The notes under the pieces are model-generated. The model was not told the DNA's origin. It saw nothing but the letters and a program-made list of their open reading frames with translations, and did no database searches. The position numbers and the translations under genes are program-made. Positions 1,810 to 4,261 of a stretch of DNA of 4,302 nt are shown here, piece after piece. The first letter of the stretch is position 1. Every line of letters starts with the position of its first letter. The DNA is taken from IMG/VR virus record IMGVR_UViG_2534681978_000024; one strand, 5' to 3'. This stretch comes from a virus (taxonomy: Duplodnaviria; Heunggongvirae; Uroviricota; Caudoviricetes).

Positions 1810-2349
1810 ATGAACTGGCATTATGAAAAAAATGGTGTACGTTATGATAACGTAACAGAGGAAGATATTATTGAACGTATCCGCCGTGGTGAACTGAATG
1901 CATCAACACTGGTGTGGCAACAGGGCATGCTGGAATGGCAGCCAGTTTCAGCCACATCACTGGCGGAAATACTGAAACAAAGTGAAGTTCCTCCGGCCCT
2001 TCCGGGTCACCGCATTCCCGGAGGCGTTGTCTGGACGCTGGCATTTGCCCCTTTGATTGGATACATACTTGAGATGTGGACTGCCGGGCTGAACGGTATG
2101 TCATTTGAACGGGCTTATGATGCAGTCAGCGAAGGCCAGTACTGGTTTATCTCTCTGATTCTGAATATTGCTCTGGGATATCTGGATGAACGAAAACTCC
2201 GTAAATCTGGCGTGGATACCACAGCATTTGGCTGGCTGGCATGGTTGATCCCGGTTTATCTGTGGCGTCGGGCAAAAATCCTCGGGCAAAAACCTGCTTA
2301 TTTCTGGGTCTGGTTGGTTATGCTGATACTGGTGTTATTTACGGTCTGA
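1810..2349 (+). CDS. Membrane protein: N-terminal GYF-like (DUF4339-type) soluble domain fused to about four predicted transmembrane helices
   Basis: ATG at 1810 with Shine-Dalgarno AGGAG (1799-1803, 6-nt spacer). N-terminal roughly 50 aa (NWHYEKNGVRYDNVTEEDIIERIRRGELNASTLVWQQGMLEWQPVS) match my recollection of the bacterial GYF-like/DUF4339 consensus (W-x-Y ... NG ... TLVW-x-x-GM-x-x-W-x-P). C-terminal half has four hydrophobic stretches (VVWTLAFAPLIGYILEMW, YWFISLILNIALGYL, AFGWLAWLIPVYLW, AYFWVWLVMLILVLFTV) separated by charged loops. Confidence 0.8.
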   Translation: MNWHYEKNGVRYDNVTEEDIIERIRRGELNASTLVWQQGMLEWQPVSATSLAEILKQSEVPPALPGHRIPGGVVWTLAFAPLIGYILEMWTAGLNGMSFERAYDAVSEGQYWFISLILNIALGYLDERKLRKSGVDTTAFGWLAWLIPVYLWRRAKILGQKPAYFWVWLVMLILVLFTV

Positions 2350-2455
2350 TATTCTTTATCGCAGAGTTTACTAAATAATCAGGTTATTAGTGTTCTTAAC
2401 AGGTAAATGATGTTCATCATGGAACGGATATATTTTATTTGATTCAGGAGACAGT

Positions 2456-2604
2456 CAGAAACATAGTATAAATATATCGCCATGTTGAAGGTCATATCTT
2501 CAGGTATTTGTTTAATAAACAAGTCGGGGGTTAATCCTGACCTCTCGAGTGGATTATAAGTATTGCAGAAACAGTTTTTATACTTTTATTTAATATCAGA
2601 AACA
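2456..2604 (+). repeat. Three direct copies of the octamer CAGAAACA in the intergenic region upstream of the 2619 gene (candidate regulator-binding repeats)
   Basis: CAGAAACA at 2456-2463, 2566-2573 and 2597-2604, the last copy abutting the Shine-Dalgarno of the downstream gene. Seen directly in sequence; significance not computed. Confidence 0.3.
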
Positions 2605-2618
2605 ATGGAGTAATTATC

Positions 2619-3032
2619 ATGAAAAATATCATCACTATTTTAATGATTGCAGTTATCAGTTTCTTTACTGCTAATGTATCAGCAAACAATGCCGTTCCTT
2701 TACCAACCAACCTGACTGATGTTACTGACGGTACAGAATTCTGGTGTCAGGGTACTGATACTATCGACGGAGGTTGTGAATACCTGGGCACATCCAAAGA
2801 CATGCAATACGGTCTGGTACACGCCATGGGGGGTACAGCGTGCTGGGATGGTTTATACGGCGTAATTAATTTCTATACCGGTAAAGCCCAGACCATCAAA
2901 TACAACAACAATCAAAGTTGTGAAGGCAACATCACCGCCAGTTTCGTTACCCTGAAAAACGGTAAACCGGGCGTTAAACTTTACGACAATACGATTCATA
3001 AGGTTGTCGGGCTTGACGAAATCAAATTTTAA
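2619..3032 (+). CDS. Hypothetical small secreted protein with four cysteines (137 aa precursor, Sec-type signal peptide)
   Basis: ATG at 2619 with Shine-Dalgarno GGAG (2607-2610, 8-nt spacer). N-terminus MKNIITILMIAVISFFTANVSA-NN has a typical signal peptide with VSA cleavage motif. Mature part about 115 aa with four Cys (two possible disulfides). Followed by a strong intrinsic terminator. No family recognised. Confidence 0.8.
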   Translation: MKNIITILMIAVISFFTANVSANNAVPLPTNLTDVTDGTEFWCQGTDTIDGGCEYLGTSKDMQYGLVHAMGGTACWDGLYGVINFYTGKAQTIKYNNNQSCEGNITASFVTLKNGKPGVKLYDNTIHKVVGLDEIKF

Positions 3033-3082
3033 TGTATGAATTATAGTATCTTATCTGCGCGTTATTAATATCAAATGTAAAT

Positions 3083-3117
3083 AAAGCCCCGGCCATTATG
3101 GCAGGGGCTTTATTTTT
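3083..3117 (+). terminator. Rho-independent terminator for the 2619-3032 gene and the AT-rich cassette
   Basis: Hairpin aaagccccggcc / attat loop / ggcaggggcttt: an 11-bp stem with one G-A mismatch (3083-3094 pairing with 3100-3111), followed by a-ttttt (3112-3117), about 50 nt after the stop codon. Confidence 0.75.
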
Positions 3118-3127
3118 ACTGAAAATA
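3116..3127. repeat. Right copy of the 11/12-identical direct repeat (ttactgaaaata) at the right edge of the AT-rich cassette
   Basis: See left copy at 1149-1160. Located at the transition from AT-rich back to GC-richer sequence, overlapping the end of the terminator T-run. Confidence 0.4.
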
Positions 3128-3375
3128 CATGACGGGCTGTACATTACTTTTATTTTCCGAAGACCCTTTCTCACGCAAACAGACAGTTGCTGTCATAACA
3201 GCTTACCGCAATGTGTTTATCCAGGAATGCATTTCCGGCGGATTATCCGCAACGCGGAAGGTCAGCGACGCTGGCGCTGCCGGAATTCTGAACCCGATGT
3301 AGGCAAATAACTTAATGCGTGGCTCACCAGTGAAGGGCTTCCCGGACAATAAACCTCATTCATTTCACCCATCAG

Positions 3376-3406
3376 GCCGCGTCTTCTCCGGGAGACGCGG
3401 CTTTTT
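3376..3406 (+). terminator. Orphan strong terminator-like hairpin with no obvious upstream CDS (possible sRNA 3-prime end, or terminator of a decayed gene)
   Basis: Perfect 9-bp GC-rich stem gccgcgtct (3376-3384) pairing with agacgcggc (3393-3401), 8-nt loop, immediately followed by T5 (3402-3406). + strand orientation (T-run follows the stem; no A-run precedes it). Confidence 0.55.
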
Positions 3407-3442
3407 CATTTATACCGCTTAATCATTCATAAGGAGCAGATA

Positions 3443-4261
3443 ATGCGATTAGCAAGTCGTTTTGGTTATGCGAACCAGATACGCCGTGACCGTCCGCTGA
3501 CACATGAAGAGCTGATGCACTATGTACCCGGTATTTTTGGGGAAGACCGGCATACCTCCCGCAGTGAACGCTATACGTATATCCCCACCATCACCGTGCT
3601 GGAAAGTCTGCAGCGGGAGGGCTTTCAGCCCTTCTTCGCCTGTCAGACCCGCGTACGTGACCCGGGCCGCCGGGAATACACCAAACACATGCTGCGTCTG
3701 CGGCGGGCCGGAGAGATAAACGGAGAACATGTCCCTGAAATCATTCTGCTCAACTCCCATGACGGTACCTCCAGCTACCAGATGCTGCCGGGTTACTTCA
3801 GATTCGTCTGCCAGAACGGCTGCGTCTGCGGTCAGTCTCTGGGAGAAGTGCGTGTTCCGCACCGGGGAAACGTGGTGGACAGGGTCATCGAAGGGGCTTA
3901 CGAAGTGGTGGGCGTTTTTGACCGGATTGAGGAAAAGCGTGATGCCATGCAGTCGCTGGTCCTGCCGCCACCGGCACGCCAGGCGCTGGCACAGGCGGCA
4001 CTGACTTACCGTTATGGTGACGAACATCAGCCCGTCACCACCACTGACATTCTGACGCCACGACGCCGGGAGGATTACGGTAAGGACCTGTGGAGTGCTT
4101 ATCAGACCATCCAGGAAAATATGCTGAAAGGCGGGATTTCCGGTCGCAGCGCTAAAGGAAAACGTATCCACACCCGTGCCATTCACAGCATCGACACGGA
4201 CATTAAGCTCAATCGCGCATTGTGGGTGATGGCAGAAACGCTGCTGGAGGGTATGCGCTGA
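3443..4261 (+). CDS. DUF932-family protein (YfjQ/YafZ-like, conserved in CP4-type prophage and integrative-element cargo regions)
   Basis: ATG at 3443 with strong Shine-Dalgarno AAGGAG (3431-3436, 6-nt spacer). 272-aa ORF beginning MRLASRFGYANQIRRDRPLTHEEL, which I recognise from memory as resembling the E. coli YfjQ/YafZ DUF932 family (not database-verified). Stop TGA at 4259-4261 overlaps a downstream ATG (4261-4263). Confidence 0.8.
   Translation: MRLASRFGYANQIRRDRPLTHEELMHYVPGIFGEDRHTSRSERYTYIPTITVLESLQREGFQPFFACQTRVRDPGRREYTKHMLRLRRAGEINGEHVPEIILLNSHDGTSSYQMLPGYFRFVCQNGCVCGQSLGEVRVPHRGNVVDRVIEGAYEVVGVFDRIEEKRDAMQSLVLPPPARQALAQAALTYRYGDEHQPVTTTDILTPRRREDYGKDLWSAYQTIQENMLKGGISGRSAKGKRIHTRAIHSIDTDIKLNRALWVMAETLLEGMR

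Follow-up and report, generated by a model that had tools for sequence, protein, structure and literature searches.

The window, by which we mean the whole stretch of 4,302 nt analysed here, belongs to a genomic island of E. coli, and strain FORC_069 carries a stretch that matches it with 100% identity. The gene order in FORC_069 runs dynamin-family, RdcB-family, patatin, three small cargo genes, DUF905 (frameshifted) and DUF932, and continues with antirestriction, RadC, DUF987, CbeA, CbtA, DUF5983, DUF957 and DUF4942; the end of the island adjoins a tRNA-Ser gene and ghrA. DUF932 is the first gene of a conserved module consisting of DUF932, antirestriction, RadC-JAB, DUF987 and CbeA-CbtA. The segment studied here, 3128-3442, lies immediately upstream of the DUF932 gene, and the features found in and around it are given below.

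3083-3117, + strand: upstream terminator hairpin, AAAGCCCCGGCC-ATTA-TGGCAGGGGCTTT and a T-run, with sub-threshold Rfam terminator-stem matches on both strands.
3129-3352, + strand: pseudogene of the DUF905 family (YkfF family, PF06006), recognised by PGAP label, Pfam, tblastn, alignment and repaired protein.
3223-3224, + strand: junction of a 10-bp deletion, at which the GGATGACC(C/A)G of intact copies is gone (alignment columns 133-142) and the frame shifts.
3308-3310, + strand: TAA that ends the C-terminal DUF905 frame prematurely; CAA in the closest relative (L003), CAG or GTG in intact copies.
3353-3442, + strand: spacer of about 90 nt from the DUF905 stop to DUF932, nearly invariant among E. 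coli paralogues and retained in O157:H7.
3374-3403, + strand: predicted terminator hairpin of 13 pairs, 8 of them G-C, with a UCCG tetraloop at 3387-3390.
3402-3413, + strand: T-tract TTTTTCATTTAT, with 5 consecutive T and T at 9 of 12 positions; the first two T close the extended stem.
3431-3436, + strand: Shine-Dalgarno sequence AAGGAG of DUF932, 6 nt before the ATG.
3443-4261, + strand: DUF932 gene, 272 aa (Pfam E 1.4e-52).

The start of DUF932 at 3443, proposed earlier in a sequence-only reading of this DNA, agrees with the Pfam match. The same reading had described the segment as GC-richer, and the GC content is indeed 0.49 in 3151-3450 against 0.31-0.46 in the preceding cargo region 2251-3150. 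The cargo ORFs 1226-1684 and 2619-3032 are A+T-rich, have signal-peptide-like N-termini (MKLLNILLSVVLTVSATVAQA and MKNIITILMIAVISFFTANVSA, respectively) and belong to no Pfam family, and 1810-2349, situated between the two, encodes a GYF_2/DUF4339 protein with predicted membrane segments. This cargo block is variable among otherwise similar islands. The hairpin at 3083-3117, which had been called the cassette terminator, is present in the sequence, and belongs to the cargo gene 2619-3032, with 11 nt between its end and the start codon of DUF905. An A-tract precedes it and a T-tract follows it, and it may work bidirectionally; on the - strand two promoter-like sites lie just upstream of it (3074-3040).

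The segment had been regarded as non-coding, with 3098-3310 as its sole ORF. As described, this ORF begins with an ATG inside the loop of the 3083-3117 hairpin, but a further ORF, 3129-3302 (57 aa, ATG), is found there too, and together they make up the two frames of one broken gene. Positions 4-26 of the Pfam DUF905 profile match the ATG-3129 frame, while positions 30-56 match the 3098-3310 frame with 24.6 bits at a cut-off of 22.3. In a tblastn search with an intact DUF905 query, two segments aligned (joint E 3.5e-28), namely residues 1-33 with 3129-3227 and residues 35-73 with 3221-3337, and YkfF as query itself matched 3224-3340 (E 3e-10). The pseudogene extends from the ancestral start ATG at 3129 to the ancestral stop TAA at 3350-3352, which gives 224 nt compared with 234 nt when intact. 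The word non-coding is thus correct in that no intact ORF is found within 3128-3442, but misses that 3129-3352 is a nearly full-length dead DUF905 (YkfF-family) gene. This coding remnant is already known, as the equivalent of 3129-3310 in the identical FORC_069 sequence carries the PGAP/RefSeq label "DUF905 family protein, frameshifted". Further, "DUF905 family protein" stands under the match in nearly every record among the megablast matches listed for complete E. coli genomes. Two other ORFs were discarded as spurious: 3315-3422 (35 aa, across the hairpin), which has no Shine-Dalgarno sequence and whose ATG is missing in the loci L004 and L005, and 3203-3349 on the - strand, which has no family match.

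The lesions were read from a DNA alignment with the intact 234-nt genes of three other strains. GGA microhomology flanks the deletion junction on each side, which suggests slippage, and from the alignment the 10 bp were probably lost by slippage between these two GGA triplets. A third difference concerns the Shine-Dalgarno sequence of DUF905, which reads A-CTGA in the window and AGGTGA or GGGAG in L002 and L004. Reinsertion of the 10 bp and reversion of the TAA in silico gave a gene of 234 nt and 77 codons. The repaired 77-aa protein scores 63.5 bits (E 1.9e-17) over positions 4-68 of the 70 positions of Pfam DUF905, which equals the score of the intact relative, and 62 of its 77 residues are identical to the intact copy in L002. 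This intact close relative in turn matches the NMR structure of YkfF, 2HJJ, with an E of 8e-16. As the segment matches the PF06006 profile and has no uninterrupted ORF of about 77-79 aa, we assign it as a pseudogene of the family. Rescue by programmed frameshifting was considered and rejected, as the junction has no slippery site, the conserved DDPG codons (10 bp) are gone and an in-frame TAA follows downstream.

The deletion allele was detected in 81 of 5426 complete genomes by use of a junction-spanning query, which intact alleles match only as far as CCAGGA, and about 35 records show 99% identity or more over the whole stretch. The allele of E. coli CFIAFB20180511 (L003), 97.5% identical to the window, carries the deletion and does not have the TAA, hence the deletion is older than the CAA>TAA change. 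Decay of the DUF905 gene is recurrent and is seen in the window, in K-12 ypjI and in O157:H7. The ypjI pseudogene of CP4-57 (L006, 20546-20817) is split over two frames like the window copy, with YkfF residues 20-49 and 50-79 in separate frames (E 7e-19), so that decay of the small gene has a precedent in cryptic islands. The 10-bp deletion and the TAA are lesions of the window copy's own, as compared with YkfF and ypjI. After ypjI there follows a hairpin with a T-run, about 20 nt before lfgA (yfjX). At O157:H7 Z1830 (L088, 2294-2632) the same dynamin/RdcB/patatin island has lost the three cargo genes and most of DUF905; what is left is a 340-nt unannotated gap, in which an intact hairpin, spacer and ribosome-binding site still precede DUF932.

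K-12 YkfF (PF06006, 2HJJ) is of the same family as the window copy, but the two share only about 44% identity, in the C-terminal half. Their surroundings differ as well, since ykfF and ypjI in K-12 lie upstream of an antirestriction gene (yafX and lfgA, respectively), whereas the window copy lies upstream of DUF932. The position and the spacer of the window are found again in intact E. coli DUF905-DUF932 pairs (for example WP_001213776.1, WP_001117568.1 and WP_001278287.1). In these pairs a 234-nt ORF (77 aa) lies about 90-100 nt upstream of DUF932, and the hairpin with its flanks is nearly identical to that of the window, with a DNA identity of 81-87% in the gene; the window allele differs in being broken.

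A decayed gene before DUF932 had in fact been suggested as one of two possibilities, in the form of the 3' end of a gene, with a GTPase as the candidate. The kind of explanation was right, but more than a 3' end remains, as the sequence from the start codon at 3129 to the stop at 3350-3352 is still there, and the lost gene is a different one. The GTPase-DUF932 order named in that reading is real elsewhere: a GTPase gene precedes DUF932 with a 91-nt spacer in K-12 CP4-57 (yfjP-yfjQ) and CP4-6 (ykfA-yafZ), and the order occurs also in 14 of 80 other loci. In the window, on the other hand, tblastn with YfjP and YkfA gave no match in 3128-3442 at E<=10, and DUF905 accounts for 3129-3340. We attach practically no probability to the segment being a remnant of a YfjP/YkfA/YeeP-type GTPase gene.

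The perfect 9-bp G+C stem followed by five T on the + strand, reported earlier for the end of the segment, is present, with GCCGCGTCT/AGACGCGGC at 3376-3384/3393-3401 and the T5 at 3402-3406, and it is the core of the longer stem of 13 pairs. The stem had been taken for an orphan terminator. Its start lies only 21 nt past the ancestral DUF905 stop, hence it is not orphan, and its end is 39 nt before the DUF932 ATG. The predicted free energy is -24.5 kcal/mol for the hairpin alone and -26.6 kcal/mol for the spacer of about 90 nt (z = -4.86), and 0 of 200 shuffles were as stable as the spacer. In the alignment the hairpin is nearly unchanged after intact DUF905 genes, and the two changes in the L002 hairpin each give a G-U pair on the + strand. 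By every sequence criterion tested the hairpin is an intrinsic (Rho-independent) terminator, and it would presumably terminate transcription in vivo.

The other possibility suggested for the segment was a small RNA. A small regulatory RNA, whether independent or of 3' UTR origin, might end at the 3406 terminator, as a strong terminator with a U-tract is the typical 3' end of such RNAs. Further, a dead gene no longer needs a terminator for protein expression, and the spacer is highly conserved among the E. coli copies. Against this, an Rfam search of the whole window at E<=10 yielded nothing beyond the sub-threshold terminator-like matches at 3083-3117, hence no match in 3128-3442, and a scan of 2900-3600 for sigma-70 consensus sites only detected no sigma-70-like promoter on the + strand. 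The 343-nt region folds marginally better than its shuffles (z -2.6), largely because of the terminator hairpin, and the hairpin follows the ancestral stop after no more than 21 nt. In relatives the same DNA contains a protein-coding gene that is intact, and these intact ORFs explain the conservation of the stretch. All in all a small RNA seems very unlikely. The apparent orphan terminator is explained by the pseudogene that was already flagged, and we would keep it off the list of new RNA elements. Two other candidates were rejected as well. A long single-strand promoter of the Frpo/ssi type does not agree with the 343-nt fold, which is unremarkable once the terminator is discounted, or with DNA that is a decayed ORF, and the EHEC sRNA Esr41 is located elsewhere, in OI-43 between z1181 and z1182.

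Hairpins are found at the same place before DUF932 in the K-12 yfjP-yfjQ and ykfA-yafZ spacers. They resemble the window's hairpin in having a G+C-rich stem, a short UNCG-type loop and a 3' U-tract soon after a co-directional stop, and termination is predicted for all of them. The stem sequence of the window hairpin is nevertheless unrelated to those of K-12, and local blastn of 3118-3460 detected no DNA similarity to CP4-57 and CP4-6. Judged by these features, the K-12 spacers are analogous to that of the window and not alignable with it.

To see how general the hairpin is, we inspected the sequence upstream of the start codon of 80 DUF932 loci from 80 genome records of Enterobacterales. Under a strict rule the stem had to be perfect over 7 bp or more, with 4 or more G-C, and to be followed by at least 4 T in 8. 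In 81 distinct 95-nt upstream regions this rule gave 52 on the + strand and 3 on the - strand, compared with a mean of 0.86 and a maximum of 3 for dinucleotide shuffles of the 81 regions. When imperfect stems were allowed, a hairpin of -12 kcal/mol or better was present in 69 of the 81 regions, and a T-tract followed it in 63 of these 69, while an A-tract preceded it in 8. The hairpins end at a median distance of 30 nt (IQR 28-33) from the DUF932 start codon. Loops of the type cUUCGg occur in 19 and cUCCGg in 8 of the upstream hairpins, and G-U wobble pairs on the + strand number 115. The stem sequences fall into several unrelated families, those of K-12 included, and the families track the upstream gene family. 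In the alignment of the 81 upstream regions, drawn from many genera, the AGGA of the DUF932 ribosome-binding site is nearly invariant, and no conserved sequence across genera was found around the hairpin.

Covariation was assessed for the 13 pairs of the window in a MAFFT alignment of the 81 regions. With the reservation that parts of this alignment are out of structural register and that the window's own sequence supplied the structure under test, 76.6% of cells were paired as against 36-50% when the structure was slid, and 166 cells were doubly changed as against 34-66. Changes on both sides were seen in 12 of the 13 pairs, and the covariation score was 0.434 compared with a maximum of 0.197 when slid; none of 500 shuffles reached the observed values. 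RNAalifold on the same alignment returned 4 pairs only, as the stems of different lineages are out of register. Since the hairpins had been selected on the + strand, a comparison of energies between the + and - strands is biased. None of these problems of register, structure source and strand choice affects the T-tract asymmetry or the shuffle control. As a modest new observation from these sequence comparisons, we suggest that in many genera a structurally conserved putative terminator precedes DUF932 by about 30 nt. Under the strict rule a terminator-like site was found upstream of DUF932 in 50 of 79 cases and downstream in 23 of 79, against a background of about 0.04 per 95 nt in the same loci. 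The site is thus about twice as frequent upstream, which indicates that the hairpin delimits the conserved module on its upstream side.

A DUF932 homologue of about 63% identity lies in the leading region of the IncF plasmid pG749_1 (L090, 3883-4000), beside an SLT gene, oriT and traM, and a DUF932 homologue is carried by at least 5000 plasmids. The spacer upstream of the pG749_1 copy contains a stem of 9 bp enclosing a 29-nt loop, together with an A/T-rich run, which is no canonical terminator. As this IncF copy is without an equivalent terminator, the hairpin is not a universal feature of DUF932.

The location of such homologues next to oriT raises the question of whether the hairpin acts in DNA, for example by folding in the single strand during transfer or as a site of recombination. 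A change in L003 also points in this direction. There the central 8 nt of the hairpin (about 2756-2785) are exactly inverted, TCT-TCTCCGGG-AGA in the window against TCT-CCCGGAGA-AGA, with one mismatch in the stem and a fall in predicted stability from -24.5 to -13.7 kcal/mol. From the sequence this looks like a palindrome-mediated loop inversion, a DNA-level event typical of palindromes. However, the strong bias towards T-tracts after rather than A-tracts before the hairpins, together with the + strand wobble pairs, is strand-asymmetric, the cUUCGg and cUCCGg tetraloops are features of RNA stability, and the IncF copy itself has no such hairpin. The strand asymmetry and the RNA tetraloops make a role at the DNA level unlikely, and we consider it highly improbable.

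How DUF932 is transcribed past the hairpin is less evident. Within the 39 nt between hairpin and ATG we found only the AAGGAG ribosome-binding site. With no promoter-like site in this gap, the DUF932 mRNA either reads through the hairpin or uses a promoter type outside the scan, and the hairpin is most likely inside the transcript leading into DUF932, a situation which the earlier reading had itself named as speaking against its proposal. According to this model, the hairpin at 3374-3406 would end + strand transcripts leaving DUF905 and the upstream cargo genes, and a DUF932 mRNA starting upstream would have to read through it. The hairpin would then probably also insulate or dampen the module of DUF932, antirestriction, RadC and toxin/antitoxin genes. 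We found no functional study of DUF905 or DUF932 in the literature, and two Term-seq data sets have no entries for yfjP, yfjQ, ykfA and yafZ. In E. coli Nissle a gene for Ag43 and a DUF932 gene ("yfjQ") rise together as measured by RNA-seq and qPCR, fluC (Ag43) and yfjQ both being strongly up-regulated in Nissle cured of its cryptic plasmids (PMC11056357). A stretch comprising the Ag43 3' end, DUF905 and the DUF932 5' end was matched over at least 80% in 2557 genomes. If fluC and yfjQ adjoin in Nissle, their co-induction would be in vivo evidence of read-through across the DUF905 terminator. The co-induction would fit read-through, though as a hint only, with the adjacency in Nissle assumed.

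Read-through that depends on a condition or on a factor encoded by the island or the host would make the hairpin a regulated attenuator or leader of the DUF932 operon, a reading that overlaps with that of an ordinary terminator. The tight distance to the DUF932 start is kept whether DUF905, a GTPase or another gene lies upstream, and the hairpin is intact in O157:H7 despite the loss of most of DUF905. The promoter-free stretch from hairpin to ATG and the excess of strict-rule sites upstream over downstream of DUF932 speak for the same. The predicted folds, in contrast, show the terminator hairpin as the only stable structure with no antiterminator pairing, and the flanks have neither conserved sequence across genera nor an Rfam family. 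Further, the hairpin families track the upstream gene family, as expected of ordinary gene-end terminators, and intergenic terminators are common in these islands generally. We regard regulated attenuation as unlikely, but should it be true, expression of the antirestriction/RadC/toxin-antitoxin module would be tied to a signal. We are more doubtful still about a stronger form, in which the UNCG-capped hairpin and its U-tract would serve as a dedicated attenuator in cis and form an RNA motif not represented in Rfam that gates the DUF932-antirestriction-RadC-CbeA/CbtA genes. Such gating might work for example via an island-encoded or host antitermination activity, and the hairpin would then be more than a generic gene-end terminator.

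The explanation that we find best, and hold as very likely for both parts jointly, is a dead DUF905 gene, inactivated by the 10-bp deletion and later hit by the TAA, followed by its own ordinary Rho-independent terminator before DUF932. The stretch is an ordinary feature and no new kind of element. The main value of the analysis is the clean-up of a small RNA candidate, with the conserved hairpin before DUF932 and the promoter-free gap behind it as by-products. A strong and structurally conserved predicted terminator in front of DUF932, together with that gap, leaves a small testable question, namely how the CP4-type module is transcribed.

Some observations were made on other spacers of these islands. 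The octamer TCATTCAT is present on both flanks of the hairpin (3356-3363 and 3423-3430) and recurs upstream of the terminator of the DUF4942 gene. L001 contains 5 copies where 0.83 would be expected, a number not reached in any of 200 shuffles. The octamer is not conserved in L002, in other genera or outside close E. coli copies, and this lack of conservation points to a probable shared spacer ancestry rather than a binding site. The DUF4942 terminator is a second strong terminator, situated upstream of that gene (L001, 10097-10169) and composed of GACGCCAGCC...GGCTGGCGTT and a TTTCATTTATA tail. This TTTCATTTATA tail is common to the DUF4942 terminator and the DUF932 hairpin. Homology to the ykfF-yafX spacer of K-12 (L007, 20208-20304, - strand) is seen in the stem of the DUF4942 terminator and in the CACACTT..CCCC upstream of it. 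It seems as intergenic terminator modules have been shuffled between gene junctions in these islands.
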